64,000 bases of DNA from a phage. Below the pieces are notes generated by a model, which did not search any database, was not told the origin of the DNA, and saw nothing but the letters and a program-made list of their open reading frames with translations. This document shows, in pieces, positions 665-42,213 of this stretch (positions are counted from its first letter, which is position 1; every line of letters starts with the position of its first letter). The position numbers and the translations under genes are program-made. The stretch lies in the sequence record PV467749.1; one strand, written 5' to 3'.

Positions 665-673
665 TTTGGTTTA

Positions 674-2647: not shown

Positions 2648-2671
2648 CGTAATACAATCTCCTAAATTTCG

Positions 2672-3288: not shown

Positions 3289-3330
3289 GATCTATCCTTG
3301 ATCTTCAAAGGCACTCCATGTGCACATATA

Positions 3331-5577: not shown

Positions 5578-5586
5578 TATTCATTC

Positions 5587-6799: not shown

Positions 6800-7311
6800 T
6801 GAACTTCTTCATGGAAGAACAGTGGGTAAATTTGTATCAATTTTTCTTTAAGTTCAAGTGAATGACATAATTCTAATGCTTTGATACAATCTTCATATTT
6901 GACTAAATTATGCAATGTACTTAACTGAAAATGTTGTTCTTCAGAGTAAGCTAAATCATATACCAAATTATCATCTAAAAGGTTTGATTTCTTTGAAGGA
7001 TCAAGTACTGTGTTGCTATGACCTACCCAGAAAAAAGCATTGGTGTTCATATTATTACAACCCCAACCTGCCCCCATTTTCTGGTGAATAGCAAAGACAC
7101 AACTATCATAGAGAATAATACCAAGACGCTCTTCGTTGACATAAATCGTAACACCATCGATTGTCATGGTTATTTGGAAACGCATTGAACCTTCACTTCG
7201 TGAACGTGCACAGAAGCCAAGATAACGGTTAATAATTGTATTGATTTTATCTGCCCATCCTTCCACATCTTTGGATGCACATAATTTAAAAAGATCATGA
7301 CTTTGATTCAT
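6760..7311 (-). CDS. family A (FQ-motif) paralog
   Basis: 183 aa; motif EEQHFQLST. Confidence 0.55.
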   Translation of the reverse strand: MNQSHDLFKLCASKDVEGWADKINTIINRYLGFCARSRSEGSMRFQITMTIDGVTIYVNEERLGIILYDSCVFAIHQKMGAGWGCNNMNTNAFFWVGHSNTVLDPSKKSNLLDDNLVYDLAYSEEQHFQLSTLHNLVKYEDCIKALELCHSLELKEKLIQIYPLFFHEEVQCTLDHILYGYDK

Positions 7312-7322
7312 GTAGTTCTCCG

Positions 7323-7904
7323 TTAATCAAGCATAAGTGGCATCATCGCCCATATCTTTTTCATAATCATATCTTCAGTAAAAACAAACGTTTTAGGTGC
7401 AGTATATGATATTGACAACCCAAATGGAAGTACGATTGCATCATCAATTATATTATGAATATCAAACCATGTTTTTACACAATCATATGGTGGAAGTTCA
7501 TGTATTGTACTTAACTGAAAGTATTGTTCTTCACCAAATGTACTGCAATCAATATCACAAATTTTAGTGAATTGATGATTCCATTTAGATATAATACTGT
7601 TTTTATTATTGAACATATTAGTTCTATGCATGAAACCATTTCTGCTAATATGATTTGATATTGCGTTTTCTTCAATATCATTGCTTATTTTAAAATTCAT
7701 GTCAAAGTTGTAGTGCGAACTCGACGATTCTTTGAATTTTAAATGAAAATAACGATTGTTATTAATTTCCATTTCAATACAAAACACATCTGAATCAAAA
7801 CGATTAAACTTGTAATCGTTGTCTTCAGGTAGAGTTTGTAATTTTTTCATAACACCAAGCATAGGGTGCACTAAGCTTCTAATAAAATCATTAGTTATTT
7901 TCAT
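7323..7904 (-). CDS. family A (FQ-motif) paralog
   Basis: 193 aa; motif EEQYFQLST, close relative of 6760-7311. Confidence 0.55.
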   Translation of the reverse strand: MKITNDFIRSLVHPMLGVMKKLQTLPEDNDYKFNRFDSDVFCIEMEINNNRYFHLKFKESSSSHYNFDMNFKISNDIEENAISNHISRNGFMHRTNMFNNKNSIISKWNHQFTKICDIDCSTFGEEQYFQLSTIHELPPYDCVKTWFDIHNIIDDAIVLPFGLSISYTAPKTFVFTEDMIMKKIWAMMPLMLD

Positions 7905-8397
7905 AGTATTCCTTTAGAACTTTAAATGATTCAACAATACTATCTTGTGTGTAATTAGAACTATATACAATTGCATTTGATTTGATTGACCACAGATATG
8001 ACATAAAGGTTATAACACTACTACATGAACTTAATGTATTGTTTTGGAATTCATTTTCTTCAATGTTATCAGTACTGGTATTGATGAATTGGATAGTATC
8101 TTGTTTCTGATTAGACATTGAAACTAAAGTACAATCAGTATAAGGAGTGTACAAAAACGTCTCATTACTAATTGAACTATCATTAGTATATGATGGTTTG
8201 GTAATATAAATCAAACGCATGATATCACGCTCAATACCCGATTTACGACTTTCCACTAAAGAAATCATATCTATATTTTTCATATGATCAACATTGACAT
8301 GGAACTTTTTGTTTAGAATTACATCTTTTGGGGAATTTTTATATGAAGATAAGATCTCATACATCTCAACTAATTCTCGTGCATTTAATAAACTCAT
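7891..8397 (-). CDS. family A (FQ-motif) paralog
   Basis: 168 aa; motif EENEFQNNT. Confidence 0.5.
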   Translation of the reverse strand: MSLLNARELVEMYEILSSYKNSPKDVILNKKFHVNVDHMKNIDMISLVESRKSGIERDIMRLIYITKPSYTNDSSISNETFLYTPYTDCTLVSMSNQKQDTIQFINTSTDNIEENEFQNNTLSSCSSVITFMSYLWSIKSNAIVYSSNYTQDSIVESFKVLKEYYENN

Positions 8398-8822
8398 GTT
8401 TTGTCTCTTAATGAAAGAATATCCTTAGTATAAACTGATACAGAAATGTGATTGTATTTCATCATTAATTTATACACATAAGAAGCTAGTACTAAATCGT
8501 AAATTAATTTAGTATCATACAGTACTCCGTATTGTAAAGCAAGTGAATCAATATCATCTTTACTTTCAATATCCAGAAATGTGCCGAAATATGTAGTACC
8601 GTGGAGATGAAAATTGGAATTAATGCAATCAATGCATTCATTGTCCAACAGAGTAGATGATGATGCCCTCGGTGAATCCCAAATAGTCACTGCGTGTATG
8701 CCCTCAACGAACAAATCTATCCATATTTTGTGTCGTTGTCTTTTTTTTGTTTTATAATTTTCTGGATTTGAAAGTGTAGTTTCAATTATATCCCATATGT
8801 ATAAGCATTCATCTCTTGTCAT
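8394..8822 (-). CDS. hypothetical protein
   Basis: 142 aa; ATGA overlap with neighbour. Confidence 0.5.
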   Translation of the reverse strand: MTRDECLYIWDIIETTLSNPENYKTKKRQRHKIWIDLFVEGIHAVTIWDSPRASSSTLLDNECIDCINSNFHLHGTTYFGTFLDIESKDDIDSLALQYGVLYDTKLIYDLVLASYVYKLMMKYNHISVSVYTKDILSLRDKT

Positions 8823-9400
8823 TATAGCACCTTATCCATTGCTGCATTTAATGCTTTTAAACGATCAACATTCAAAGTATTGAAGATGTACGTTCCTAAA
8901 ATGTGGAAATCGAACTGGTTCTTTTTGTATGTGTGATAAATTAAACTACAAAAAACAACAGTACTAAGAACCTCTTCCGGTATAACGGTGCTCATCTGAA
9001 ACAGTTCTTCATCAACTGTACTTGATTCTGGATTGATAGCTTTTAACTCATACTCTTTATCACCGAATAGTACTTTAATATTATATAAAACACCAACAGT
9101 ACTAATATGAAATGGGTGGTGTGAAAAACTTCCATCATCATTAATTTGGATATCGGATCTAATCTCGCACTCTTCATTACTTTTACTATTATTTTTTACA
9201 ATACAAATATTCCTGGCACCAGAAATAGTAAGAATACCGTGATCGTAATATTCTTTGGACATACATTTAGATGAAAATGACACATCACGAATGAGGTAAT
9301 GTTTGTTAATTTCTTTGGCACTACCAACAATGTGTAGCATCTTTGTACTGATATCATATAGCTGTTGGTGTCTGGCTGTCATATAACTATAAGCGTTCAT
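8822..9400 (-). CDS. family A (FQ-motif) paralog
   Basis: 192 aa; motif DEELFQMST. Confidence 0.55.
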   Translation of the reverse strand: MNAYSYMTARHQQLYDISTKMLHIVGSAKEINKHYLIRDVSFSSKCMSKEYYDHGILTISGARNICIVKNNSKSNEECEIRSDIQINDDGSFSHHPFHISTVGVLYNIKVLFGDKEYELKAINPESSTVDEELFQMSTVIPEEVLSTVVFCSLIYHTYKKNQFDFHILGTYIFNTLNVDRLKALNAAMDKVL

Positions 9401-9971
9401 ATGTATCCTTGATGTTTTTGATTGCCGTGTGTAGCTCTTTTAATGTATCGGATTCACAGTTAATGAACTTACTATACATTACCAATTCACCAGTGTCAAT
9501 AGCTTTTGCAGTTTCATAGCAAAGCATCATGTACTCAAACTCCTTGAAGTTGTCAAGTACTGATCTCTGGAAAATGTATGCTTCACGAATGTCTTCACTT
9601 TGATCTAGTTCTGGTGGAATTTCCAAATATGTATCATTCTCTACGTCATCAAAATTAGATTCAACAATTCGATTAATATCTTCGTGTAAAGCATTGACAA
9701 ATATCATGTTTGGAGTAATGGAACCGATTTGCTCACTATGCCTTGATGTGCGGATATACATTGCCATAGTATCCCATGAACCTTTTTTCGTCGTTCCATA
9801 ATCGTAAACTTTATAAGACTCCAGTACTACTGAACCAAAACGATATGGTGATTTGCATTCAACTTTAAGACGATAATTTCCAATAGGCTCATGTTCAGTA
9901 ATGTTGTGCTTTTCAGATAGTTCTGCAATGTCATGCATCAATTTCATAATTTGAATATGTTCAGCTTGCAT
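9387..9971 (-). CDS. family A (FQ-motif) paralog
   Basis: 194 aa; motif EAYIFQRSV. Confidence 0.5.
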   Translation of the reverse strand: MQAEHIQIMKLMHDIAELSEKHNITEHEPIGNYRLKVECKSPYRFGSVVLESYKVYDYGTTKKGSWDTMAMYIRTSRHSEQIGSITPNMIFVNALHEDINRIVESNFDDVENDTYLEIPPELDQSEDIREAYIFQRSVLDNFKEFEYMMLCYETAKAIDTGELVMYSKFINCESDTLKELHTAIKNIKDTYERL

Positions 9972-10534
9972 TATAAGTCCTCTAATTTAACAGGTACATG
10001 TTCATTGATGAACGTCTTAAGAGCCAGTACTAGATCTTCTAATTCTTCTGTACTGAATTTTAATATAGTTTTAAAGATTATCAATTCATTTCTTTCTATA
10101 ATCTTTGGAATTTCATATGCTAACATAAGATTGCGAACAGTACCAGCGTTGTGTATGAGGTTCGCATTGAATAAAAGTACATCGTACTCGTCTTTTTTAA
10201 TTTTATAATTGTACTCTTCAATTACTTCATGTGTGTATGTATTCTTATAAGCAATTTTATTTTTATGAAATTTATAACCAACAGTAACACTATCATCATA
10301 AAATGTAGAACGATAATCTTGTTTTCTATCGCCGGACGAAATGATGTGTAATGCTGTGTATTTGTCCTCAACATCTAACTCAATGTTTGCATAACTGTTA
10401 ACAGTTTCATTCTTTAGGACGTTAATGTTATATTTCTCATTAACTTTAATGTACTGGCGTGAACCATTATCATCAATGAACTTAAAACAATGCTTTACCA
10501 ACAATGTGATTTCTTTAATTAATTCAGTACTCAT
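9971..10534 (-). CDS. hypothetical protein
   Basis: 187 aa; no FQ motif. Confidence 0.5.
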   Translation of the reverse strand: MSTELIKEITLLVKHCFKFIDDNGSRQYIKVNEKYNINVLKNETVNSYANIELDVEDKYTALHIISSGDRKQDYRSTFYDDSVTVGYKFHKNKIAYKNTYTHEVIEEYNYKIKKDEYDVLLFNANLIHNAGTVRNLMLAYEIPKIIERNELIIFKTILKFSTEELEDLVLALKTFINEHVPVKLEDL

Positions 10535-10595
10535 ATCTTCTCCTGTACTCTGTTAAAAGCGATTATAACACACCTGAATGCTCATGTAAAGCACT

Positions 10596-10621
10596 AAACA
10601 CAAAAAGACCCATAAGGGTCT
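10596..10621 (-). terminator. intrinsic terminator
   Basis: Hairpin AGACCC-ataa-GGGTCT 10606-10621 abutting stop of 10622-11206; U-run follows on minus RNA. Confidence 0.5.
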
Positions 10622-11206
10622 TTATTTTGGTAAAACGCTGTCAATGTACGCTAGAGCCTCATCTCGGAGGTACGTTCCATCTATCGTTATGTAATAGTTC
10701 TTAGGGATATCACTACCAATCTTCTCGTAAATTTTCATACATGATATCACATCTTCATCACAAATGGTACTCAATTGAAACTGTACTTCATCAGTTAAAG
10801 GTACGATATCATGTTTAGATGGGGGGTTGGTATTTTCATTCAAAACAATATCAAACAAATTAGGAGTATTCTTTGACGAAATGTAACGATGTTTACTACG
10901 AATTACCATTCTCGACAGAGAAATACTGGAACTCCATCTTGGGTCCACATCTTCGTATGTTAACGCAATTAACATTTCATAATAATCTTGGAATTTCATT
11001 GATGCATAATATGTTTTGTCCTCACCGTACATTCCAAATGATTTGAATTCAATGTCACCTACATTGTGTGTATCGCTATCACTATTCACGAATTTTAACA
11101 GACTGTTGATTAGTCTGATTAGAATATCATCTTTATTCATTATCAGATAACTCCCTGTGCATGTTGTATAAATCTCTAAAGTCCTGATAGAAATCTTTTT
11201 CTTCAA
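10622..11206 (-). CDS. family A (FQ-motif) paralog
   Basis: 194 aa; motif DEVQFQLST. Confidence 0.55.
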   Translation of the reverse strand: MKKKISIRTLEIYTTCTGSYLIMNKDDILIRLINSLLKFVNSDSDTHNVGDIEFKSFGMYGEDKTYYASMKFQDYYEMLIALTYEDVDPRWSSSISLSRMVIRSKHRYISSKNTPNLFDIVLNENTNPPSKHDIVPLTDEVQFQLSTICDEDVISCMKIYEKIGSDIPKNYYITIDGTYLRDEALAYIDSVLPK

Positions 11207-11699
11207 GAATATCTTTTAAACTAGGAATCTCATCCATAATCTCATCGATATCAGTTTCAATAGTAAAACCTGATTTATAATTTTGTAAGAGATAACTAAA
11301 AGCAACAATGTAAAGAATTTCATTTGGTTTATGGATTAACATGTGTTGGAACATAACTGATTCTAAATCAGATTCAGTACTAAGGTCAGCATAACATGTA
11401 TCGTTTATGTCAATTCGTACTTTACTTGAATTTGGATTCCATGTAAAGCAATGTGTTCCAACTGTTCCCAAACATCCTACTCTTGTACTATCATTTGTTC
11501 CCAAAAAGATATCAAAATACGTTTCATCTGTATAATCGTATTTTTGTACTTTACCTTTTTTAAGGCATAAATCATTATCCTTTCGAAAAGTTTTAGATGA
11601 TAGTGTATCAATGATGCACATTAATGTTTTTGCAAATGCAATACAATGACGTAATTCAAGTCTATGGAAATTATAATTAGTAAAATTCAAAAAATTCAT
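11133..11699 (-). CDS. family A (FQ-motif) paralog
   Basis: 188 aa; motif SVMFQHML; start probably a downstream ATG. Confidence 0.5.
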   Translation of the reverse strand: MNFLNFTNYNFHRLELRHCIAFAKTLMCIIDTLSSKTFRKDNDLCLKKGKVQKYDYTDETYFDIFLGTNDSTRVGCLGTVGTHCFTWNPNSSKVRIDINDTCYADLSTESDLESVMFQHMLIHKPNEILYIVAFSYLLQNYKSGFTIETDIDEIMDEIPSLKDILEEKDFYQDFRDLYNMHRELSDNE

Positions 11700-12238
11700 A
11701 ATTGTACCTTCAATATTTTATCAGCAATTGATATAACCTTGTCATTGAATACATTACCAATTTCAATTCTTATATACATCGCAGGTGGAATCTTTCCCTG
11801 AAGTGCATAATATGTTTGTATACCTAAGTACTCATTATTTGATAATGAAAATTTGATTCTCTCCATATCTATGTCTGATTTTGGTAAATCTAAGAATTCA
11901 TGATGGAAGTCAACATTTTCAGTGTATATCTGTTCGACGTAATTTGAATAGTCACTACTAATGTAGATGCTATCATCACGAACAATTACTTTATAATCAG
12001 AAGGTTCAAACTTATCTTTAGGAGAAAAGAAGACATCATCTATCTTCTCTTCTCGTATACCGAATAACAATTTACCATCGTACTTTACATCAAGCATACT
12101 ACCTAGAATAGTAATTACACAATGTTCATCAATGTCATGACGTAATGAACGAGTCTTGTATTTTGGGTTAATGAAAATTTTCATTAATTTTATACAAATG
12201 TCGGCAATGCATTTTACATTATCATTTTCTATGTACAT
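11696..12238 (-). CDS. hypothetical protein
   Basis: 180 aa. Confidence 0.5.
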   Translation of the reverse strand: MYIENDNVKCIADICIKLMKIFINPKYKTRSLRHDIDEHCVITILGSMLDVKYDGKLLFGIREEKIDDVFFSPKDKFEPSDYKVIVRDDSIYISSDYSNYVEQIYTENVDFHHEFLDLPKSDIDMERIKFSLSNNEYLGIQTYYALQGKIPPAMYIRIEIGNVFNDKVISIADKILKVQL

Positions 12239-12716
12239 CGTAAATCCTCTTTAATTCTTTTACATTTTTAATGAATACTTTCATTGCAGAAATCTCAAAA
12301 GCTAATGATTTAAATTTGCAGTACTTTTTAAAGTACGACATAATGAATAGCATTTTGAGTTCTTTTTCTGTGTAAATTAAACTATTTTGAAAGTAACTTT
12401 CTTCTGATAAATCATCAAGAAAAGGATATACAACTCCATTTGGAGTCAAGAACATGACACGTTCACTCCAAGATCTAAATGAAATGTAATCAGTCTTACC
12501 ACATTCATATAAGGAGTTTATCATTCCGTCAATCATTAAGGAGAACTCAATACTGTATCCTAATCGTTGACACTTGTATCTCTTATCTTCTTTCTTTGTA
12601 ATTACAAAGTGACGACCCAATGCGTCTTTGTTATCGAAAATGAAATCAACTGTCTCTAAACACTCCTTAGCGAACTTTATAGTTTCTCTGTACTTTCGGT
12701 TCATTAGTCTCTCCAA
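12222..12716 (-). CDS. family A (FQ-motif) paralog
   Basis: 164 aa; motif EESYFQNSL. Confidence 0.55.
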   Translation of the reverse strand: MERLMNRKYRETIKFAKECLETVDFIFDNKDALGRHFVITKKEDKRYKCQRLGYSIEFSLMIDGMINSLYECGKTDYISFRSWSERVMFLTPNGVVYPFLDDLSEESYFQNSLIYTEKELKMLFIMSYFKKYCKFKSLAFEISAMKVFIKNVKELKRIYDVHRK

Positions 12717-13117
12717 ACTTTACCAGGGAAGTGTTTCTCGTAGAACTCATCATCACTTAACATATAATCAGGTGTTTCTACTTCTATGGGTTTGTAGAAT
12801 GTTTCTGGAATGTGTGTAATTTTATTGGGTAGTACTTTATGTTCGCGTAAAACCTTCTGTATAGCTCCTAGACGTTGTAAATCAATACAGCCCGGCAGAA
12901 CTAAGCTGTACTGAAATAGCTCATCAGGGGTCATTATAGATACATCCTTGGCTTGTTTGATTTTATTGTTGGCATTAATGAATATATCAAATCCAAGTAC
13001 TGCATTATAGCTTACATATGTTGTTTTGTTTTTGTCAATAGCTGCACTTAAACTATATCCATATATTCCATGTTGGTCAACAATGCATCGTTGCATAATT
13101 TTAATCATTTCGAACAT
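12704..13117 (-). CDS. family A (FQ-motif) paralog
   Basis: 137 aa; motif DELFQYSL. Confidence 0.55.
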   Translation of the reverse strand: MFEMIKIMQRCIVDQHGIYGYSLSAAIDKNKTTYVSYNAVLGFDIFINANNKIKQAKDVSIMTPDELFQYSLVLPGCIDLQRLGAIQKVLREHKVLPNKITHIPETFYKPIEVETPDYMLSDDEFYEKHFPGKVWRD

Positions 13118-13463
13118 AATTTACCTCGTATGTGTTATAATTCCACGTTTTAACACTATCCATTTGTATATCCTGAACTTCATGGAAATATTTAAGTACC
13201 TTCTGGTATTCCATTAGTTCGTACACATCTTCAGTATTGACAGTGCTCTCCTGAAACAATTCCTCTTCTGATAAAGTACTATAATCAGGGATTTTTATTT
13301 CAGAATATATCTCATTCATATATGAATCATTTTGGTAAATCTGTAGATAAAACTGATTATATTCAGGGATATAGGTTACGAAATGGTTCTTGATGAATTC
13401 ATATCTTGAAGCAAAGCAATCATTGCCATCCGTCATGTACTGAATTGTTGTTGTATTATGCAT
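13101..13463 (-). CDS. family A (FQ-motif) paralog
   Basis: 120 aa; motif EEELFQEST. Confidence 0.55.
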   Translation of the reverse strand: MHNTTTIQYMTDGNDCFASRYEFIKNHFVTYIPEYNQFYLQIYQNDSYMNEIYSEIKIPDYSTLSEEELFQESTVNTEDVYELMEYQKVLKYFHEVQDIQMDSVKTWNYNTYEVNYVRND

Positions 13464-13938
13464 TCAAATAATCCACGCATTTATGGTATACATCTAAATC
13501 TAAAAAGAATCGTTGTTTGTATTTGTAATGATGAAGTAGTGCACCATAAAGTAATATAGCATTAAGTACTTTTGCATCATGAATACAAGACCCTTGGAAG
13601 TACATTTCTTCTGTCATGAAAACTAACTCATTGTACGGGATAAGCACTGAATCTCTAAATGTATCAATGTTAATCTTCAAATCGGACCCTTGGCAATATG
13701 AAATATATTCACCTCGGTAATGAAAGTCATTATCGTCAAAGTACTCAGCATATACTTGATTGTTCCTATTATTTTTAAAGGCAAGTCTTCCTTTGGTTGA
13801 ACTGAATTGGTCATATTGGAACATTCCACCAAAAGGCATTCCACCGAAAGGTTGGGGACTTCTGAACTCCTTTGCAATGCGATGAATGTTAGATGCAAAT
13901 TCTAAAACACCATCGTAATCATATTCTGTTGTAATCAT
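13456..13938 (-). CDS. family A (FQ-motif) paralog
   Basis: 160 aa; motif EEMYFQGSC. Confidence 0.55.
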   Translation of the reverse strand: MITTEYDYDGVLEFASNIHRIAKEFRSPQPFGGMPFGGMFQYDQFSSTKGRLAFKNNRNNQVYAEYFDDNDFHYRGEYISYCQGSDLKINIDTFRDSVLIPYNELVFMTEEMYFQGSCIHDAKVLNAILLYGALLHHYKYKQRFFLDLDVYHKCVDYLNA

Positions 13939-14414
13939 AGACCATTTTTCTCCATGTACTCAATGATTTCATCTACGAAGTTTAAATCCATATAGAATCT
14001 ATCATTTGCGTCATTGAGTTCATCTTTAAGTACTGTAAAAATTGTAGAACTAAACACGATTCTCTCATTGTACAAAGTACTGTACTGGAAGAATTCTTCT
14101 TCTGATCTAACATTAAATGTGTCATATTCATCATCATCATTAGATCTAGGATGATAGTACTTAAAACTATCAGATGTATGGAAACAATATGAGATAAAAT
14201 CCCCTGATGGTGCATCGTCAAGTACACGAATACCACAGAAATTCTCATCTGTAGTATGCAACAAATTGCTATTCATTGACAAATAATTTTTGTACGCATA
14301 AAGTGTGCATCGTGGGAGAATTATATTCTCTTTAACTGTTACAAGGAACTTATGAAGTTTAATGATATTTTGTGCGATTTTTTGTGCATTGCTAAATGAT
14401 AGGTCTTTGGACAT
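13935..14414 (-). CDS. family A (FQ-motif) paralog
   Basis: 159 aa; motif EEEFFQYST. Confidence 0.55.
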   Translation of the reverse strand: MSKDLSFSNAQKIAQNIIKLHKFLVTVKENIILPRCTLYAYKNYLSMNSNLLHTTDENFCGIRVLDDAPSGDFISYCFHTSDSFKYYHPRSNDDDEYDTFNVRSEEEFFQYSTLYNERIVFSSTIFTVLKDELNDANDRFYMDLNFVDEIIEYMEKNGL

Positions 14415-14473
14415 TGTGATATAACCCTTTACAATTAATATAAAGAGATTATATCACAAAGATTTGGAGGGTG

Positions 14474-15064
14474 TCAAGAGTTCTCACGAAGTTCTACCAT
14501 TTCTTTCCATACTAAATGGTAATCTTCTAAGTCCAGATAGAAGTCTTCATTTAAGTGCTCATATAAGTACTTGTACATGAATAGTACACCTAAATTGTAT
14601 TCAGTAGTAAGCAATGATTGTTGGAAGTAGTTTTCTTCATTTAGTTCTATATCCATGAACTCAAATCTACCTAGACCTTTTAATGTACGTATCTCAACAT
14701 GTGAAGTATCTGTTTTACTGAAGCACATGAATCCACCTCTAAATTCGGGATCATATTCACATTCATACTGTCCACTGTTATTATAGAAATCTCTATTACC
14801 ATCCTTATCTTTTGGCTTAACAACTGATACGTGAAGGTCGTCATCTTTGTACATTGTACGTTCTGGCGTTTTCACACATTTTAACTTATTTTCTTTAATG
14901 TACTTGATAATATCAATTATATCTTGTGCAGTACTGATTGCTGCCTCGAACGTATCCAACTTAAGATGATTGTATAGAGTTCCCTCGTTCTTTATTTTAT
15001 CTAACATACTAACCTCATAGTTCATACATCTTTGATTTGAATTGCATTGGTCCACCAACTTCAC
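14474..15064 (-). CDS. family A (FQ-motif) paralog
   Basis: 196 aa; motif EENYFQQSL. Confidence 0.55.
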   Translation of the reverse strand: MKLVDQCNSNQRCMNYEVSMLDKIKNEGTLYNHLKLDTFEAAISTAQDIIDIIKYIKENKLKCVKTPERTMYKDDDLHVSVVKPKDKDGNRDFYNNSGQYECEYDPEFRGGFMCFSKTDTSHVEIRTLKGLGRFEFMDIELNEENYFQQSLLTTEYNLGVLFMYKYLYEHLNEDFYLDLEDYHLVWKEMVELRENS

Positions 15065-15353
15065 ATGGATAATTTTCCATAATACGATTCAAAAGTATCT
15101 GGTACTGTTGTAGTACTTCAATTTCCAAATGTATACTACTATCCAGTACTAATGACTCCTGAAACAATTCACCTGTATCTAAACCTGAAAAATCATTTAT
15201 AGTTAGCATTGGCTTATCATTTGTACGCAATGTAAATGATTCCTCATTTCGGATTAATGTACAGAATTCATTATGTTTTCTGTTATAATTCATTTTAACT
15301 AATAATAACTTAGTGTGAGTTGCGTACATTATTTTTACTAATTCAGTCTTCAT
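15015..15353 (-). CDS. family A (FQ-motif) paralog
   Basis: 112 aa; motif GELFQESL; start may be downstream. Confidence 0.5.
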   Translation of the reverse strand: MKTELVKIMYATHTKLLLVKMNYNRKHNEFCTLIRNEESFTLRTNDKPMLTINDFSGLDTGELFQESLVLDSSIHLEIEVLQQYQILLNRIMENYPCEVGGPMQFKSKMYEL

Positions 15354-15702
15354 AACGGAATAAAATTCTCCTGTACTGCTCCGGCTTAGTACTCAATCTC
15401 TTCACCGGATAATTGTCGAAGATCCTTTTCATTTCTTTCTGGATTAAACAAAGAAAATCAAAATCACAATAGTATTTTTTATCCCATACTAAACTTTCTT
15501 GAAATAACTCATCTTCTTGCATTAGCGTAGTATCAATCGTATCTTCACGTGTATTTGAGTACGCTTCATGACATTGAAATCCATCTTCTGACAATTCTAA
15601 TGTATATGCCGCCATTTCAAACATATCATCATTTGTCTTTAACGAAAGTAAACAACAAACGTATTTTTTCGTTGTGTAGTACGTAATACTAATGGTATTC
15701 AT
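15343..15702 (-). CDS. family A (FQ-motif) paralog
   Basis: 119 aa; motif EDELFQESL. Confidence 0.55.
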   Translation of the reverse strand: MNTISITYYTTKKYVCCLLSLKTNDDMFEMAAYTLELSEDGFQCHEAYSNTREDTIDTTLMQEDELFQESLVWDKKYYCDFDFLCLIQKEMKRIFDNYPVKRLSTKPEQYRRILFRYED

Positions 15703-15707
15703 GGCAT

Positions 15708-16310
15708 TTAAACCTCAGTATAAAGCTTACAATAGCTTTCATCGAAATCAAAAATACTTCTCAAGAACTGACAAAGGTCAGTAAAAATATTTACATTTGC
15801 TATATACACATTATCAAATTCTGTTCTTTCGAAGAATGTATGCATAGAATTTGTAATATATCTCATTGCAGATTCACGCTGCATTGTTATATCATTTGTG
15901 AACATCGCATCTTCATCAGTACTGACTAATTCAATATCAAATGATTGCATATATGGGATACTCTTCCCTAGTGCAAAGCTATCACCGTATGATGCTTCAA
16001 CTGCACCTTTAGAATACACCAATTGATATAAGTCCGAAATAGGGTTATAAAAAGTACGACATATTGATGAACATAATTTATTATCTATCCAAAAGAAAAC
16101 CCTATTTGTATTACCGTCAAATGCTATACGCAATCCATCACCATCTAACGATATATCACCATCGAGATTAAAAGAGAACTGAACTAATGCTTTTTCTAAG
16201 TCCATTCTTTTGTGATAAATGATTTCTTGCATATAGATAATATCATTTACTAATTTCTTAAAATACAAATGAACCTCAGTACTACAACATTTATTTGCAT
16301 TTAATAACAT
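15708..16310 (-). CDS. hypothetical protein
   Basis: 200 aa; no FQ motif. Confidence 0.5.
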   Translation of the reverse strand: MLLNANKCCSTEVHLYFKKLVNDIIYMQEIIYHKRMDLEKALVQFSFNLDGDISLDGDGLRIAFDGNTNRVFFWIDNKLCSSICRTFYNPISDLYQLVYSKGAVEASYGDSFALGKSIPYMQSFDIELVSTDEDAMFTNDITMQRESAMRYITNSMHTFFERTEFDNVYIANVNIFTDLCQFLRSIFDFDESYCKLYTEV

Positions 16311-16897
16311 AGTAGTTCCTTATACATTGCGTGTATTCTTTCAATATCTCTGTAATAACTCATATCTTCACGAGTATCATTAAAAATAGTAACACTGAAT
16401 ATATTAATACTAATTGAACTATTATCAATGTACTCTTTTAATTTATTATAAAGATATATACATTTAGTAGATGTATCATCCCACATAAGACTATTTTGAA
16501 AGATGTTTTCTTCTGTATTAGGATATAAGTACTGGTCAATATTGTACTCCAATGAACTATCACAGTTTTTATATACAGAAATAGATGGAAAATTTTTATT
16601 GTACATAATACTAATAACATTATCATTGTATGTAGAAATTAAACTGGTACTGGATGCTACACTTTCATCATAATTCAGTACTGAAATTCTTGCATTATCT
16701 GTGCAGTACAGATGTTTCATTCCACCTCTCATAGCCATAGTAAGAAATTTATCAGTGAACCATATTCCTTTTGTTTTCAGTATAGTTTCATGCATAAGAT
16801 AAGTTTCAATGAAGATTTTTACACGCTCAAATGCTAAGTCAAGTTCATTGTACATAACGGATATCCTTCTGTAAAGAATCAATATATTCTTTAACAA
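16301..16897 (-). CDS. family A (FQ-motif) paralog
   Basis: 198 aa; motif EENIFQNSL. Confidence 0.55.
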   Translation of the reverse strand: MLKNILILYRRISVMYNELDLAFERVKIFIETYLMHETILKTKGIWFTDKFLTMAMRGGMKHLYCTDNARISVLNYDESVASSTSLISTYNDNVISIMYNKNFPSISVYKNCDSSLEYNIDQYLYPNTEENIFQNSLMWDDTSTKCIYLYNKLKEYIDNSSISINIFSVTIFNDTREDMSYYRDIERIHAMYKELLCY

Positions 16898-17036
16898 CTT
16901 GTTCCTGATACTGTGTGCCCAAATACATCAGTACTTTTAACTCTTTGAATTCAGTACTATATGAGTCGGTTTGCATCATTTTAGAAGAATATATATTGAA
17001 TAGTTTGGCAATATCATCTTGGTCTATTATTTTCAT
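16845..17036 (-). CDS. family B (LGTNYQE-motif) small protein, outlier copy
   Basis: 63 aa; motif YLGTQYQEQVV. Confidence 0.5.
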   Translation of the reverse strand: MKIIDQDDIAKLFNIYSSKMMQTDSYSTEFKELKVLMYLGTQYQEQVVKEYIDSLQKDIRYVQ

Positions 17037-17241
17037 ATATTCTCTTCTGGATTAGTTCCTGTAAGTGCTGAATATAACCCTTCATTGCAACATCCTGTTT
17101 GTTAGAGCCAACGAAGAACAATAGCTTAAAGTCATGGTAATCCATTTTTGGTTTAGTAGTGAACCATATGTCCCACACTGCCCTCACAGTTCTCATGTAT
17201 TCAATTCGATTAAATGTTTTTGAATACTTCATCGAAATCAA
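17014..17241 (-). CDS. family B-like small protein
   Basis: 75 aa; degenerate motif FVGSNKQDVAM. Confidence 0.4.
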   Translation of the reverse strand: MISMKYSKTFNRIEYMRTVRAVWDIWFTTKPKMDYHDFKLLFFVGSNKQDVAMKGYIQHLQELIQKRIYENNRPR

Positions 17242-17743
17242 CCTTTAATAAATTGATATTTAAATTACTGTTAAATGCCATCTGCAATTCCATATAGAAC
17301 TGAATAATAGCATAGTCAGGATCAGTACAAGATAGTTGAAAGCACTGTTCTTCAAATGAATTGTAATTGTACTTAGGAATATTAATAGTACGATATAACT
17401 CTGGATAACCCCATATCATAGTGTACACGTCAATTTCAGTACACTTTTTCTTAAAAGTCATCTGTCGAATAGTTTCAGATCTGGATTCAAGGTATACAAC
17501 ATTCTTATGAACGGCTGAACCAATTGAAAGCAATGATGTATCAATGACGTGTTTCTCACGTATCTCACACTTCTGGAATGCACCATTCCCTTGTAGAAGT
17601 TTATGGAAATCGTACTTCTCACTAATAACTGTACTAGGATCAATTAATCCAGTACTGCATTTTTTCAGTACTGGTACGATAGTGCGAATTTTTTTTGATA
17701 AATCTTGTAATGCATCATAATCATTAATGTTAATTTTTCTCAA
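17210..17743 (-). CDS. family A (FQ-motif) paralog
   Basis: 177 aa; motif EEQCFQLSC. Confidence 0.55.
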   Translation of the reverse strand: MRKININDYDALQDLSKKIRTIVPVLKKCSTGLIDPSTVISEKYDFHKLLQGNGAFQKCEIREKHVIDTSLLSIGSAVHKNVVYLESRSETIRQMTFKKKCTEIDVYTMIWGYPELYRTINIPKYNYNSFEEQCFQLSCTDPDYAIIQFYMELQMAFNSNLNINLLKVDFDEVFKNI

Positions 17744-18185
17744 AGGATGCCTCTTCTATAGTAACGAAATCAACTAACCTATCCAGATTTTCAGTGTCAA
17801 GATAAAATACATCCAGTACTGACTTCTGATATAGTACACTAAATGTACATAGATTGTCAAGTGTTCCTTCATTATAAACAGTACTTCCCTGGAAGTACCC
17901 TTCTTCTGTACTCAGAGATAAAATATCAGAAATTTTAAAAGATTCTTCATTCTCATGACGCTCTATCGTAACTTCATCATATTTTCTGTTCAATGAAATA
18001 TAATCGTATGCTAACTCAATTAGACTATAATTATCCGCATTAGTATCAAATAAAGAATCAATTGTAATCTTCGTGCCATTAGAAACTTCTCTTCGTTCAT
18101 CATCTACGTATTCAGGATTTTCTTTGAAGAACTTAACAACTTTTAGAATATCATTTGCTTTCTTGATTGCACTTTCGTAACTCAT
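17730..18185 (-). CDS. family A (FQ-motif) paralog
   Basis: 151 aa; motif EEGYFQGST. Confidence 0.55.
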   Translation of the reverse strand: MSYESAIKKANDILKVVKFFKENPEYVDDERREVSNGTKITIDSLFDTNADNYSLIELAYDYISLNRKYDEVTIERHENEESFKISDILSLSTEEGYFQGSTVYNEGTLDNLCTFSVLYQKSVLDVFYLDTENLDRLVDFVTIEEASFEKN

Positions 18186-18624
18186 TTTTTCTGGACTCCA
18201 TATATATTACCTGATTTAGTTCATATACATAATCTAAATCAATGAATATAGAATTATTAAAGTTCTCTTGCAGGAATGCATTAAAAACTACTAAAGCTCT
18301 TAACGCCCCATTTGGGTATATAGTACTGTACTGGAAGTAAGCATCTTCTGAATTTAAAAATAGTACTTCTTCTTCTGTGAATTCAAAATATTTTCCACCT
18401 TCCTCTATATAATAGAAAGTTCCAGAATCCCATACGAAGTACTTGAATTCCAAATCATAATCATGGGACTCGTACTTATATTCATTACCTAATCCTAGAA
18501 TATCTGTACCAACACTTATAGTACTAATATATGCCCCTTTATAGTCTAAGTACTTTACATTATTTTGAAAGAACTTTACTATATTAACTAATTCCTCAGC
18601 GTGCTTAAGATCACTTTCGTACAT
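18151..18624 (-). CDS. family A (FQ-motif) paralog
   Basis: 157 aa; motif EDAYFQYST. Confidence 0.55.
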   Translation of the reverse strand: MYESDLKHAEELVNIVKFFQNNVKYLDYKGAYISTISVGTDILGLGNEYKYESHDYDLEFKYFVWDSGTFYYIEEGGKYFEFTEEEVLFLNSEDAYFQYSTIYPNGALRALVVFNAFLQENFNNSIFIDLDYVYELNQVIYMESRKNELRKCNQESK

Positions 18625-18938
18625 TATATTTCAATCTCTATATATTTTTGGGTAATTAAGTAATCCCAGTAGTACTTCACATGTTTTTGTATCTCAAGTA
18701 AAGCATAAAAATTAATTCTCTTATCCCATACAAGTGATTCCTGAAAAATAAATGATTCATGATCATCTCTGTAATCACATTCAAGGAAGTCAGGAAGATA
18801 ATCACAATCGTGAAGATATTCAATCATTAAAGATTCATTACATCTTCTAACGGCAAGGTGCTGGAAATTATCATGATCGAAGAAATACATTAAACTAATT
18901 GTACCTGGAATGTACTGAATACTGTATAATAATTTCAT
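18624..18938 (-). CDS. family A (FQ-motif) paralog
   Basis: 104 aa; motif ESFIFQESL. Confidence 0.55.
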   Translation of the reverse strand: MKLLYSIQYIPGTISLMYFFDHDNFQHLAVRRCNESLMIEYLHDCDYLPDFLECDYRDDHESFIFQESLVWDKRINFYALLEIQKHVKYYWDYLITQKYIEIEI

Positions 18939-19378
18939 CGTTTACCCTTATGTTCGGCACGTACATATTCATAATCCAAATAAAACCTTGTACTATCAAT
19001 ACTTTTAAAGTACCACATAATAACTAAAGTATCTAGTACTTCATCATCATACAAAGTACTATTCTGAAAGTAATACTCTTCACTATCCCACGGACCTTTC
19101 AGTACTTCAAAGTTCAATTTTAAAGGTCTGCTGCGATTATAAAAACGGATTTCACCACCATAAGCATAACTGATAAATTCTGCATCTGGATTGTATTGTG
19201 AAAAATCTGCGGGACTTTTGGAATTCAGCCCAAGAATAACTGTAGTTGTGGTAAAATCACTATCCTTGTAGTAGTTACCATTCTCGGCTTTGTATACTTC
19301 TTCGAACTTCCCAGCCTTAATATCTTCAATATATGCCTGTAGTTCTTTTGCTTTATCAAGAGCACTTTGTAATGACAT
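18935..19378 (-). CDS. family A (FQ-motif) paralog, subgroup PWDSEEYYFQ
   Basis: 147 aa; motif EEYYFQNST; one of 4 near-identical tandem copies. Confidence 0.6.
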   Translation of the reverse strand: MSLQSALDKAKELQAYIEDIKAGKFEEVYKAENGNYYKDSDFTTTTVILGLNSKSPADFSQYNPDAEFISYAYGGEIRFYNRSRPLKLNFEVLKGPWDSEEYYFQNSTLYDDEVLDTLVIMWYFKSIDSTRFYLDYEYVRAEHKGKR

Positions 19379-19844
19379 TATCTTCCCCTACAGTATTCTC
19401 TACGTATTCATAATCGAAATAGAAACTATCAGAACCAATACTTTTAAAGTACCACATAATTACAATAACATCTAATTCTTCTTCATTGTACACAGTACTG
19501 TTCTGGAAGTAATATTCTTCACTATCCCACGGACCTTCTAGTACTGAATACGGAATGATTGTGTCATAATCATCGTAATCAGGGCTGTAAATTATAATAT
19601 CTTCATCTCTACAATAACTAATGTACTGATTGTACATATGATATTCACAGTCATCAGTATCACCCGTATCAGTGTGTAGTACTAACGTTTCTGCATGTAT
19701 CTCTGACTCATCATAATCGTCGCGGTCTTTTACAAAAAATTCAGTATCAGATGTTTTATACACACCAGGCACTGAACCTTCTTGTACCATAATCATGTAC
19801 TCATGAATCTTCTTTGCTTCTTTCAATGCACTTTCTAATGACAT
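19356..19844 (-). CDS. family A (FQ-motif) paralog, subgroup PWDSEEYYFQ
   Basis: 162 aa; motif EEYYFQNST. Confidence 0.6.
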   Translation of the reverse strand: MSLESALKEAKKIHEYMIMVQEGSVPGVYKTSDTEFFVKDRDDYDESEIHAETLVLHTDTGDTDDCEYHMYNQYISYCRDEDIIIYSPDYDDYDTIIPYSVLEGPWDSEEYYFQNSTVYNEEELDVIVIMWYFKSIGSDSFYFDYEYVENTVGEDNVITKCS

Positions 19845-19846
19845 TA

Positions 19847-20287
19847 CTAATCCCCTGTACTTAAATATTCACATGCTCCCCAGTCAAGGAAGAAGGGTTC
19901 AAAATTCAATTCCTTAAAGTACCACAAAACAACCAAGGAATCAAGCATTTCTTGGTTAAAAATAAGACTCTGTTGGAAGTAATACTCTTCAGTACCCCAC
20001 GGTCCATCAAGTACCCCGAAGTCAACAGGTGTATTTGATGTGTCAAAAGTAATCTTAGTACCTGGAATATATACAAAAAAACTAGTATATTGACTACATG
20101 AAGAGTACTGTATAGTATTGTCTTTATCATGGCCCATAAGTAAAATATCATCAGAGTATGTCTTTATACCTGATAGATAATACTCATTACCAAATGCACT
20201 TACTTTATCACCATAGAAACCACTTTTTATGTTATCGTGGAAGTGATGTATTTTGTGTGCCAGTTTAAGTGCACTTGCTAAACTCAT
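19847..20287 (-). CDS. family A (FQ-motif) paralog, subgroup PWDSEEYYFQ
   Basis: 146 aa; motif EEYYFQQSL. Confidence 0.6.
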   Translation of the reverse strand: MSLASALKLAHKIHHFHDNIKSGFYGDKVSAFGNEYYLSGIKTYSDDILLMGHDKDNTIQYSSCSQYTSFFVYIPGTKITFDTSNTPVDFGVLDGPWGTEEYYFQQSLIFNQEMLDSLVVLWYFKELNFEPFFLDWGACEYLSTGD

Positions 20288-20754
20288 ATATCCTCTTTAA
20301 TAACTCGTAGTAGATCCAAGTCCAGATAGAAGCTAGGACAATCGGTATTATTAAAGTACCACAGAATGACAAGCTTGTCAAGCACATATTCCTCGTAGAT
20401 AGTATTCTGCTGGAAGTAGAACTCTTCACTTCCCCAGTCATTATCCAGTACTGAATACGGAAGATGTTTCTCTGCTGCACCAGTTTTAATGTCAGTATCT
20501 TGTATTAAAATATCAGCATCACGACAGAAGTACATGTAATTATCTTCCAGATTAACAACACACCCATTGAGTGTTGTTTCAGAAGAATCTAAGTTTTCTT
20601 CATACATGTGAATGTACTCACTACTGTCATCGTATATCATTCGACAATAAGCTTTACCTTCCTTGAATAGATACCCATTGAGACGATTGAGTACTATTTC
20701 CTTTTTACATAAATCAATTAACTTAGCAATTTCTAATGCTCTTGCAAAACTCAT
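20284..20754 (-). CDS. family A (FQ-motif) paralog, subgroup PWDSEEYYFQ
   Basis: 156 aa; motif EEFYFQQNT. Confidence 0.6.
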   Translation of the reverse strand: MSFARALEIAKLIDLCKKEIVLNRLNGYLFKEGKAYCRMIYDDSSEYIHMYEENLDSSETTLNGCVVNLEDNYMYFCRDADILIQDTDIKTGAAEKHLPYSVLDNDWGSEEFYFQQNTIYEEYVLDKLVILWYFNNTDCPSFYLDLDLLRVIKEDI

Positions 20755-20755
20755 A

Positions 20756-20941
20756 TCAACTCCTGTGTTGTGTCTTGATATAATCTCGGTAAACCATGTG
20801 AATATTAGCTATATACAATTCACTAATATCATATGTACCGAAGTACATGTCATTCCTAATGCTGTTGTTATGTCTAATATCAATTACGAATCGTCGAAGT
20901 ATTGTATTCATGAATGATTCCATTTGTTCTTTTTTATTCAT
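20756..20941 (-). CDS. hypothetical small protein
   Basis: 61 aa ORF filling the gap between array members. Confidence 0.4.
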   Translation of the reverse strand: MNKKEQMESFMNTILRRFVIDIRHNNSIRNDMYFGTYDISELYIANIHMVYRDYIKTQHRS

Positions 20942-21282
20942 AGCTTAAAACGATACCTATCTTTGGAATCAGTCTCTATACAGATTCTTCTATATTCTTT
21001 CATCTTCTGTTGGAGTTCAATAACTTCCTCTAGTGTACACAAGTACTTCTTGTCAAATATTAATGACTCTTGAAATATTTCAGCCTCACCCTGTACAGTT
21101 GTATAGTCTTTCATATTTTCTACAACTGTTCCTTTGGACTGATAATCAATTAAGCTAAAGTAAGAACCATTAAATTTAATGTACTGATCCATTTTGTGTT
21201 CATAATCACCTTTGTTAAGATTGCAATACACTTCCAGTGAAGTACTAATCTTAGGTATAAACATAGAAAAATCATATGTCAT
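20938..21282 (-). CDS. family A (FQ-motif) paralog, subgroup FDKKYLCT
   Basis: 114 aa; motif AEIFQESLIFDKKYLCT. Confidence 0.6.
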   Translation of the reverse strand: MTYDFSMFIPKISTSLEVYCNLNKGDYEHKMDQYIKFNGSYFSLIDYQSKGTVVENMKDYTTVQGEAEIFQESLIFDKKYLCTLEEVIELQQKMKEYRRICIETDSKDRYRFKL

Positions 21283-21638
21283 TATGTAATTCCTATATTG
21301 AATTTGTATTCTTGATTAATACTTACATTGGATGTATTCAAAGCAGCATACTCTTTCATTTCATTTTGTATTGTAATAACTTCTTCAAATGTACACAAGT
21401 ACTTCTTATCAAATACTAATGCAGCTTGGAATAGTTCAGCGGCATCCATTACTGTATAATCCGGCATATCTTGATGTGGATACTGTAATGAATCGTAATC
21501 AATAAATGTAAATTTACCCTGAGTGTAATGAATATACTCATTTGCACTGTGCATTAAATCACCTTTGTTTAAATTACAAAAGTACTGAAAACTGTTCTTA
21601 AAAGAATGTACTGATATTACAAAATCAAATTCCATCAC
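21282..21638 (-). CDS. family A (FQ-motif) paralog, subgroup FDKKYLCT
   Basis: 118 aa; motif AELFQAALVFDKKYLCT. Confidence 0.6.
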   Translation of the reverse strand: MMEFDFVISVHSFKNSFQYFCNLNKGDLMHSANEYIHYTQGKFTFIDYDSLQYPHQDMPDYTVMDAAELFQAALVFDKKYLCTFEEVITIQNEMKEYAALNTSNVSINQEYKFNIGIT

Positions 21639-41130: not shown

Positions 41131-41317
41131 CGTCTTGATTCCTTTTAGTACTAGGGAGAACCATTTCCCCCTCTCGATATAAAACATTATACGCTCATTG
41201 AGATAGTTTGCAAGTACTTTTTTAAAAATAGTTTTCAGTACTGAATACTTATATAATAGATACACTTCCGCACCCTATGGGTCAGTGAGTTATCTCTCAA
41301 TGGATATATAATAGCAA

Positions 41318-41341
41318 AGGGACTGACCGGAGTCAATCCCT
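41318..41341. terminator. bidirectional terminator inside repeated intergenic cassette
   Basis: Same hairpin as 38561-38584, followed by T6; 3' of kinase-like gene. Confidence 0.5.
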
Positions 41342-41354
41342 TTTTTAATCTTTT

Positions 41355-41939
41355 TTATCGTGTTACCTTACTTGCTGCCACATCACGCTTTTTATAGTAC
41401 TGATTCCAGATATTGCAGGTTAAACCGTAATCAAGTACTTTAATAAGGCCATTACGATCCTGGCCGATATTCTGTTTTCTGATATCTCTTATCGTTAGTG
41501 TTGATAATGTATCATCGACGTGTTGTAGTGCATCAGCAAAGCGGTGCTGGCGTTCGATTGCATTACGTTTAATATTGTACTTTAATTCATTGCACGCGTT
41601 TACGTGCTTCACACTACCTTTGCTTGCAGTACTCAACCGATCCATAACGATAAACATATTATCAGGATCGCATAAATGCATATGCACCTTTGCAAAGTAC
41701 TGTTTCAACTGAGGGCGGTCATAGTCTAAAAAATTCCATACCTTACATTCAGTTTCATTTTGTTCTACACCCGCATCACAATTCGCGACCTTAATCACTA
41801 ACCGATCATTTAAAGCGAAAACTATACGGGAAGAACCAGCACCGATGATCTCCAGGCCAGCTAACCGACAAGCTGAAAGGATCTCTTTGTTGGTTTCCAT
41901 TTCTGACAGTGTACGGATGAATTTAGTATAATTACGCAT
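41355..41939 (-). CDS. protein kinase-like protein (minimal ePK/RIO/KdoK-like fold)
   Basis: 194 aa from ATG 41937-41939 (AAGGAG SD); motifs in order IIGAGSSRIVF, VIKV, RDIRKQN, VLDYG. Confidence 0.5.
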   Translation of the reverse strand: MRNYTKFIRTLSEMETNKEILSACRLAGLEIIGAGSSRIVFALNDRLVIKVANCDAGVEQNETECKVWNFLDYDRPQLKQYFAKVHMHLCDPDNMFIVMDRLSTASKGSVKHVNACNELKYNIKRNAIERQHRFADALQHVDDTLSTLTIRDIRKQNIGQDRNGLIKVLDYGLTCNIWNQYYKKRDVAASKVTR

Positions 41940-41970
41940 TGCATGTTCTCCTTGAGTTAATGAAACTATA

Positions 41971-42213
41971 TTACAGTACTTTACTATCAATGGCAACTAC
42001 TTTTTTAACATTAACGGCGTGGATCACTTCCTTCGTGTTTTTAGTACTGAATACTTTCGCCGCTCCTTGTTCGACCGTGATACGATAGCGACCATTAACA
42101 TCAACCATATTAATAAAGTCCGGCGTGCTGAATGGTGTTGTTTTACATTTGAGTACTGTTAACAGTTCCACCAGCGATGTAGTTTCTTTGATACGTTTTT
42201 CTAAAGTAATCAT
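41971..42213 (-). CDS. hypothetical protein
   Basis: 80 aa from ATG 42211-42213; upstream leader duplicated at 42490-42546. Confidence 0.5.
   Translation of the reverse strand: MITLEKRIKETTSLVELLTVLKCKTTPFSTPDFINMVDVNGRYRITVEQGAAKVFSTKNTKEVIHAVNVKKVVAIDSKVL

Follow-up and report, generated by a model that had tools for sequence, protein, structure and literature searches.

Can a phage protein of 194 residues, ending only 22 residues past its DFG-like motif, be a true kinase, and if it is, what might the phage use it for? The question is raised by a gene in a 64,000-nucleotide stretch of phage DNA (sequence record PV467749.1; this whole stretch is called the window here). An earlier reading of the letters alone, the original prediction, had described the gene as a phage-encoded minimal protein-kinase-like gene. 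The gene, which we call the mini-kinase gene, lies at window 41355-41939 on the minus strand, and the phage belongs with the Asteriusvirus jumbo coliphages (PBECO4/121Q/G17/Sharanji/UE-S1; genomes of 348-386 kb), the top DNA match being UE-S1 at 98.3%. We are nearly certain that the product truly has the kinase fold and that its catalytic set is intact. That it acts early on host proteins, for takeover or counter-defence, is a tentative proposal, to which we give somewhat less than an even chance.

Evidence for a kinase fold

With the single sequence as query, the Pfam Pkinase model (PF00069) matched residues 46-181 (E=0.0035, 17.2 bits), the match spanning profile positions 26-152 of 263 only. 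A phmmer search of the PDB gave 16 weak matches, 16/16 of them to protein kinases, and the alignments were in register, placing RDIRKQN on HRDxKxxN and DYG on DFG. A profile of 13 close homologues gave 315 PDB matches at E<=10, the top one to MKK4 (E=1.5e-4). Among the 60 matches listed, 58 were to kinases and two were to haemoglobin chains without a significant aligned stretch. The alignments made with this profile cover the segment from the glycine-rich loop (G-loop) to the DFG, that with MKK7 extending over residues 29-182. With a 56-sequence family profile the MKK4 match reached E=2.5e-5. The families closest to it in sequence are those of Ser/Thr/Tyr protein kinases (MKK4/7, PKC, BTK and PknB-like). 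Further, the depositors of the Klebsiella phage Muenster genome reported an HHpred match of 99.9% between the orthologue in that phage and the plant kinase chain 6J5T_M. An NCBIfam scan of the mini-kinase gave no match. Matches to the PADLOC defence kinase PD-T4-6 were weak (E>=0.0013) and were read as generic kinase similarity.

When AlphaFold (AF2) was given the 56-sequence alignment, which includes distant relatives, the model had a predicted local distance difference test score (pLDDT) of 95.1 and a predicted template modelling score (pTM) of 0.89; with the 13 close homologues the model was poor (pLDDT 50.7). Read from the N terminus, the model shows two helices, beta1-beta3, alphaC (55-73), beta4-beta5, alphaD (109-120) and alphaE (130-145), followed by the catalytic loop, beta7-beta8, the DYG and one terminal helix (175-193). 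The model thus has the bilobal fold of protein-kinase-like (PKL) proteins, with a five-stranded N-lobe plus alphaC, a hinge, alphaD/alphaE, and catalytic and metal-binding loops. In Foldseek searches the best structural matches were aminoglycoside phosphotransferases, APH(2''), and in BFVD many further phage proteins of 140-260 aa share the mini-kinase fold.

The original prediction had proposed a search against kinase profiles and a structure prediction, and had named the findings that would count against it: no significant match to any kinase-like profile and a fold unrelated to that of protein kinases. Kinase matches were found, weak for the single sequence and clearer with the family profile, and the predicted fold is a kinase fold. 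The description of a minimal protein-kinase-like gene is therefore borne out by the family profiles and the in-register PDB matches.

Motifs and catalytic residues

Four motifs had been listed in canonical order, and all four are present in that order: IIGAGSSRIVF (residues 31-41), VIKV (47-50, including Lys50), RDIRKQN (151-157) and DYG (170-172), the last beginning 19 residues from R151, as had been said. Conservation was counted in 221 family proteins of 140-320 aa aligned to the family hidden Markov model (HMM). The codons concerned are:

41826..41843, minus strand: G-loop, G33-A-G35-S36-S-R38; R38 conserved in 221/221, G35 in 214/221 and S36 in 214/221
41790..41792, minus strand: Lys50 (VIKV), the putative ATP-anchoring beta3 lysine; conserved in 221/221; aligns with the VAIK lysine region of MKK7
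41748..41762, minus strand: Q60-N61-E-T-E64, in model helix 55-73; Glu64, the predicted alphaC glutamate, conserved in 221/221, Q60 in 220/221 and N61 in 216/221
41469..41489, minus strand: catalytic loop, R151-D152-I-R-K-Q-N157; D152 conserved in 216/221; aligns with HRDIKPSN (MKK4) and HRDIKPQN (bacterial kinases)
41424..41432, minus strand: D170-Y-G172, the DFG-equivalent magnesium-binding motif; D170 conserved in 218/221 and G172 in 218/221; aligns with DFG in all listed kinase alignments

The PKL catalytic set (K50, E64, D152, N157 and D170) is present in full and aligned with its kinase counterparts, so that, judged from sequence, the catalytic residue set of the mini-kinase is intact. 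Asn157 is N in 36/39 close relatives, and N or Q in 39/39. The position of the HRDxK lysine (+2 from the catalytic Asp) is Arg154 here and is variable in the family, and Lys155, at +3 from the catalytic Asp, is unconserved. Arg38 fills the position of the third G-loop glycine. One helical turn before Glu64 is the QN pair, a family-specific signature. In distant relatives the catalytic loop is one residue longer, "GDxxxxx(H/S)WG". The motifs go far beyond chance because the PDB kinase matches are in register, the family conserves these residues, and the ratio of nonsynonymous to synonymous substitution rates (dN/dS), given below, is low.

A reduced C-lobe

The activation segment, P+1 loop, APE motif, alphaF Asp and alphaF-alphaI are all absent from the 194-aa protein. 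The activation segment and alphaF-alphaI are replaced by one helix:

41361..41417, minus strand: codons of the single C-terminal helix, residues 175-193, predicted by AlphaFold (block pLDDT 84-87)

Close homologues are all 191-212 aa long, and the median length beyond the DxG is 20 residues across the 221 relatives. Because the whole family ends about 20 residues past the DxG, the missing C-lobe parts are no truncation artefact, and the reduced C-lobe is the native architecture. The original prediction had called the protein much shorter than typical kinases; it is, and the shortness is a family trait.

The gene and its family

The gene call holds at 41355-41939; the strand, minus, had not been given. 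The gene runs from an ATG at 41939-41937 to a stop codon at 41357-41355. A program-made list of open reading frames (ORFs) has a longer, 213-aa frame from a TTG at 41996, but every annotated orthologue uses the 585-bp frame rather than this extension. The coding sequence and its ribosome-binding site are:

41355..41939, minus strand: mini-kinase coding sequence, including the stop codon; product of 22.4 kDa and isoelectric point 9.1; identified from the ORF and sequence, orthologue frames, dN/dS and phrog_4301
41947..41953, minus strand: ribosome-binding site AAGGAGA, 7 nt 5' of the ATG; read from the sequence, with a ribosome-binding site annotated at the equivalent place in UE-S1

Against five orthologues with synonymous differences dN/dS was 0-0.09, and against the four that also differ at nonsynonymous sites it was 0.03-0.09. 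Since dN/dS is low, the mini-kinase gene is real and under purifying selection. The identical protein sequence occurs on 29 public contigs, phage vB_Ec-M-J among them. No kinase paralogue was found elsewhere in the window.

The protein matches phrog_4301, a family of unknown function, over its full length (E=4.3e-41, residues 3-188 on profile positions 13-185 of 225). When 1.84 billion cluster representatives were searched exhaustively with a profile, 2071 proteins matched at E<=1e-3, with 245 reaching E<=1e-10, family size being expressed as clusters at 50% identity with E<=1e-3. Most family proteins are 180-260 aa long with a common end point, and the family-wide motifs are GxGSSRxV, (V/I)(I/L)KxA, GxxQNxxE, D...G and LDYG. 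There is no Pfam model for the family. The relatives listed by a word-index search were all called "hypothetical protein" or had a kinase-type Pfam match, and none had another name. Membership of the mini-kinase in phrog_4301 and this wider large-phage family is direct, with common motifs and a common end point; distant members differ in the longer loop, in having His/Ser/Thr for Asn157 and in lying in other genomic modules.

By tblastn an orthologue was found in 60 phage records, and all of those listed come from jumbo phages (310-386 kb). Those listed include Asteriusvirus isolates of Escherichia/Salmonella, Klebsiella phages RaK2, K64-1 and Muenster, Salmonella phages Munch, 7t3 and SE_PL, Erwinia phage Hallingskeid, Yersinia phage fHe-Yen9-04 and Pectobacterium phage CBB; one Xanthomonas record was counted only. 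The inspected contigs with family members all resemble large phages, and the family sits in large-phage genomes wherever this was checked.

The genes around the kinase vary. Those upstream differ across genera, as in Muenster and in the contig of P0007, the closest relative outside Asteriusvirus, where a run of tiny ORFs is found, with a ParE-like gene immediately upstream (L019 4745-4996). In Muenster, a YafQ-like ribonuclease toxin gene lies two genes upstream of the kinase (L007 563-811). Some relatives are within replication modules, some are between neck protein and tail sheath genes, and some overlap the stop codon of a neighbouring gene.

A few relatives are much longer. P0021 (693 aa), P0023 (923 aa), P0027 (638 aa) and P0030 (969 aa) have 3-6 tandem mini-kinase domains per called ORF; they may be true poly-kinases, or neighbouring paralogues that were merged because genes were called under the wrong genetic code. 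When long relatives were scanned with Pfam for fusion partners, most gave no match, and the two with domains were P0121 and P0132. In P0121 (2130 aa), the mini-kinase stretches share the called ORF with GNAT, 2H-phosphoesterase and CCA-adding-enzyme domains. In P0132 (3248 aa), the kinase (857-1033) is inside a tape-measure-like protein (PhageMin_Tail, 125-315), an arrangement that, if true, would imply delivery of a kinase with the virion. Both of these joins may be gene-calling fusions.

Terminal repeat and transcription

In vB_Ec-M-J the orthologue (16690-17274) is inside the annotated direct terminal repeat, 1..21525, and a second copy of identical length, at 373738-374322, is at the position predicted from the right repeat. 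The Muenster orthologue is likewise inside a PhageTerm-predicted repeat, 1..20030. Among the records listed, two kinase copies go with lengths of 368-384 kb and a single copy with lengths of 348-358 kb. Mapped from vB_Ec-M-J, the repeat extends in the window from ~37,100 to 57,000-58,600, and the window seems to hold one whole terminal repeat flanked on both sides by unique sequence, as in a collapsed assembly. The gene is inside the direct terminal repeat, so that there are two gene copies per virion genome. The authors of UE-S1 give a terminal-repeat length of 8,298 bp, shorter than that of vB_Ec-M-J; the repeat boundaries are depositors' annotations and differ between reports.

Between 38700 and 58600 the window has 12 perfect (12/12) sigma-70 promoters (TTGACA-16/17-TATAAT), all on the coding (minus) strand, where the number expected by chance is far under one. 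The region has the look of a tightly packed set of promoters for the host RNA polymerase. The signals nearest the kinase gene are:

41968..41996, minus strand: weak sigma-70-like promoter, TTGCCA-17-TAATAT (9/12), found by consensus scan only, directly upstream of the kinase gene
42546-42518 and 42270-42242, minus strand: two repeated sigma-70-like promoters, TTGACA-17-TACTAT (10/12), each before a small co-oriented gene
41306..41343, minus strand: 38-bp putative terminator/promoter cassette, immediately downstream of the kinase gene; hairpin at 41343-41316; a terminator is annotated here in UE-S1

The kinase gene is the last of a run, coming after three small co-oriented genes (the third at 42543-42797) with no terminator between, and the nearest upstream terminator, at 42836-42818, marks the start of the transcription unit. 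PHROG scans of the three upstream genes and of other neighbours gave "unknown function" or no match only. In the cassette, the stem and loop of a hairpin with a 12-bp stem hold a TTGACT -35 box, and TATTAT follows 17 nt on. The cassette sequence, AAAGGGATTGACTCCGGTCAGTCCCTTTGCTATTATAT, is found in three exact copies in the window, at 38549-38586, 41306-41343 and 44571-44608 (minus strand), with a variant at 48267-48294, and it appears to act as both terminator and promoter between early genes. The sigma-70 promoters and the terminal-repeat location together argue for early expression by the host RNA polymerase, and the kinase gene is probably transcribed by that enzyme soon after DNA entry.

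The repeated promoters also give spurious N-terminal ORF extensions, at 41265, 39836, 42270 and 42546. These extensions share identical peptides (MTVLKCFST..., MFYIERGKWF...), and the real starts are the downstream ATGs.

Relation to known kinases

The original prediction pointed to T7 gp0.7 as the classic example of a phage kinase used for host takeover. That comparison stands as an analogy, but not as sequence kinship. An hhalign comparison of the 56-sequence family with T7 gp0.7 gave a probability of 1.4%, over 27 columns around the G-loop (the G-loop-to-lysine stretch) only. Membership in the T7 gp0.7 family was rejected on this value and because the mini-kinase has DYG, not DPV, and no shut-off domain. 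Among early phage kinases, T7K and JSS1_004 inactivate defence systems, and T7K is a proven host-takeover and anti-defence kinase (PMC13645617, PMC12345140). The mini-kinase is like both in being phage-encoded, in lying near the genome end among genes that the host RNA polymerase transcribes (in the case of the mini-kinase, probably), and in having a small atypical kinase domain; T7K-type models are also structurally similar to it (BFVD Foldseek E ~2e-6). It differs in that it has DYG and ends 22 residues on, whereas T7K has DPV and a C-terminal shut-off/DNA-binding domain (PMC13645617). A separate T7K-like gene is reported in G17 and Munch (PMC13645617), and in Sharanji, as WNN14432.1. In Sharanji it was not among the genes up to ~62 kb, and the window reaches only to about 42.7 kb on the Sharanji genome; by the Sharanji accession numbering, the T7K-like gene should lie outside the window.

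Canonical kinases (PF00069; MKK4/MKK7, PknB) differ from the mini-kinase in having the activation loop, P+1 loop, APE, alphaF Asp and alphaG-alphaI. The mini-kinase, for its part, has Arg at the third G-loop Gly and an unconserved HRDxK Lys, and its score is under the Pfam cut-off. RIO and Bud32/PRPK, which function in complexes of the ribosome or of tRNA modification, keep two or three C-terminal helices past the metal-binding loop. The mini-kinase matched neither the Pfam RIO1 nor the Kdo family even at E<=10. The archaeal RNA kinase ArkI/Ark1, the substrate of which is tRNA, had no sequence-level match to the mini-kinase. Among minimal kinases, OspG has 196 aa. The mini-kinase resembles OspG/NleH and SteC in being a kinase core of similar size, with a depleted C-lobe, that a parasite delivers into its host (PMC13395416). 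The N-lobe of SteC was a weak match to the family profile (8jbi_D, E=0.0055).

Possible function

We propose that the protein is a catalytically competent "one-and-a-half-lobe" protein kinase, in which an N-terminal extension of two helices precedes a normal N-lobe, and of the C-lobe there is no more than the beginning. The N-lobe would carry the G-loop, Lys50 and alphaC with Glu64; the start of the C-lobe would carry alphaD, alphaE, the Asp152...Asn157 loop and the DYG Asp170, and would be closed by the terminal helix. Lys50-Glu64, Asn157 and Asp170 would bind ATP-Mg, Asp152 would be the catalytic base, and the invariant G-loop Arg38 may supply the positive charge that normally comes from the HRDxK lysine. 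Because activation segment, P+1 loop and alphaF-alphaI are missing, the substrate site would be open and poorly selective, and the enzyme would be constitutive, without regulation of the cellular-kinase type. Early in infection it would phosphorylate host proteins, and perhaps phage proteins, on Ser/Thr. The outcome would be host takeover or disarmed defences, making the protein a functional analogue of T7 gp0.7 that is evolutionarily independent. Given an open phosphotransferase, an early-type setting and the precedents of T7K and JSS1_004, such a role is the most likely one. We infer the early timing, the protein substrate and the takeover or anti-defence role, the takeover role from genome position and promoters.

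Several points weigh against this proposal. The 194-aa protein alone does not reach the Pkinase gathering cut-off of 31.7 bits. Distant relatives have His, Ser, Thr or Asn at position 157, and lie in differing neighbourhoods (modules for RNA repair, for replication or for structure). Directly before the kinase gene the promoter is weak (9/12), and since no transcriptome for Asteriusvirus-type phages was found in the literature, early timing is drawn from promoter consensus and position only. A literature search on the mini-kinase family found no survey or experiment. Further, many kinases in which the C-lobe has lost its substrate-binding half do something other than ordinary protein phosphorylation; RIO and Bud32 are chiefly ATPases, and ArkI phosphorylates RNA. 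OspG requires an E2~ubiquitin partner (PMC13395416, for OspG and SteC). Activation of the mini-kinase by E2~ubiquitin in a bacterial host is implausible. The orthologue in phAPEC6, gp500c, is not named in the text of the phAPEC6 virion-proteome paper, the protein table of which may lie elsewhere, and this is uninformative.

An alternative is that the enzyme is an active phosphotransferase with a non-protein substrate: RNA (at a tRNA 2'-OH or 5'-OH, ArkI-like), a nucleotide, an antibiotic-like small molecule, a lipid or a sugar. Every canonical peptide-binding element is absent from the mini-kinase, the best Foldseek matches are the APH(2'') enzymes, and there is a structural match to ArkI too. 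The neighbourhoods of certain relatives also fit. The distant relative P0189 (L008 6001-9967, on a 306-kb JGI contig) is directly upstream of a polynucleotide-kinase/CPD-like gene, with NUDIX, T4-type RNA ligase 1, HD protein and DNA ligase genes downstream, an arrangement common to three independent contigs; another relative, P0239, is near KTI12-like and RtcB genes; and P0121, as noted, has 2H-phosphoesterase and CCA-adding-enzyme domains in a single called ORF with the mini-kinase stretches. However, the sequence is nearest to Ser/Thr/Tyr protein kinases and not to APH, choline kinase or ArkI, and in a Pfam scan of the 56 members at E<=0.01 the only matches were to Pkinase (5/56) and ABC1 (1/56). 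Moreover, an RNA-repair neighbourhood is found in 2/9 contexts, neither here nor in the closest relative, and a P-loop polynucleotide kinase is already present at the P0189 locus. A non-protein substrate is unlikely, at about one chance in several.

Less probable again is that the protein is an ATPase or a partner-dependent switch (RIO-, Bud32- or OspG-like) that remodels or blocks a host or phage partner. Such a switch would use ATP binding, hydrolysis or autophosphorylation, and its partner could be the product of the co-transcribed small genes. A reduced architecture is common to minimal kinases (OspG, SteC: PMC13395416), the kinase gene ends a run after three small co-oriented genes with no terminator between, and some relatives overlap the stop codon of a neighbour. 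But the RIO1 and Kdo models found nothing, the upstream genes are not kept with the kinase across genera (Muenster, P0007 contig), and the catalytic base Asp152 is conserved though a pure ATPase has less need of it.

That the protein lacks catalytic turnover altogether, as a pseudokinase or a scaffold that binds nucleotide, is improbable. The unconserved HRDxK lysine of the catalytic loop, the His, Ser or Thr that replaces Asn in most distant relatives and the Arg at the third G-loop glycine could be taken as signs of a lost activity; Lys50, Glu64, Asp152 and Asp170, however, are essentially invariant in >200 diverse sequences, and Asn157 is N or Q throughout its own subgroup, a pattern typical of active enzymes. 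Finally, a chance resemblance of motifs without kinase kinship, which the sub-threshold single-sequence Pfam score and the poor 13-sequence AlphaFold model might suggest, is refuted for practical purposes by the consistent in-register kinase matches, the high-confidence kinase-fold model and the depositors' independent HHpred annotation of the Muenster orthologue.

Previous annotation and significance

The kinase likeness is already on record, in several GenBank/UniProt entries and in one paper ("protein kinase, function unknown"). Existing labels are "serine/threonine-protein kinase PRP4" (fEgEco12), "PknA" (Turkey3), "protein kinase domain-containing protein" (ph0011 and PBECO4, UniProt), "putative protein kinase" (Munch, SE_PL and Muenster) and "protein kinase" (K64-1, RefSeq); most orthologue records are still labelled "hypothetical". 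Three things are not on record in the literature found: a very large core-only kinase family without a Pfam model, in large-phage genomes wherever checked; its independence from T7K; and the duplication of the gene in the terminal repeat.

The phage kinases T7K and JSS1_004 were recently shown to be broad anti-defence weapons, and the Rak2-like jumbo phages carry a different, much smaller kinase in a duplicated terminal repeat among early-type promoters. It is possible, though doubtful, that this kinase represents a second phage kinase class independent of T7K, made up of ~200-aa "core-only" proteins, so far only from large-phage genomes, that work without an activation segment as constitutive, broadly acting anti-defence or takeover kinases or as non-protein (e.g., RNA) kinases. 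If active, the protein would set about the lower size limit known for a self-sufficient protein-kinase core, with a single helix past the DFG, and would be a tractable 22-kDa model for the role of the activation segment and alphaF-alphaI. Those who use Asteriusvirus isolates in phage therapy would do well to know of an unannotated host-modifying enzyme.

Other features of the window

The minus strand of the window between 12222 and 31067 has several small tandem paralogous families of unknown function, one of six genes (12.2-20.8 kb), one of five (15.0-22.0 kb) and one of three (13.1-31.1 kb), as well as other pairs. On the plus strand, opposite to that of the kinase, an RCC1-repeat ("regulator of chromosome condensation") gene is at 62570-63724 (phrog_4219, E=6e-59). 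In the equivalent region of Sharanji some ten genes of ~380 aa follow one another on the same strand, one with an RCC1-repeat annotation, and in vB_Ec-M-J ten RCC1 annotations lie under the match to the window.

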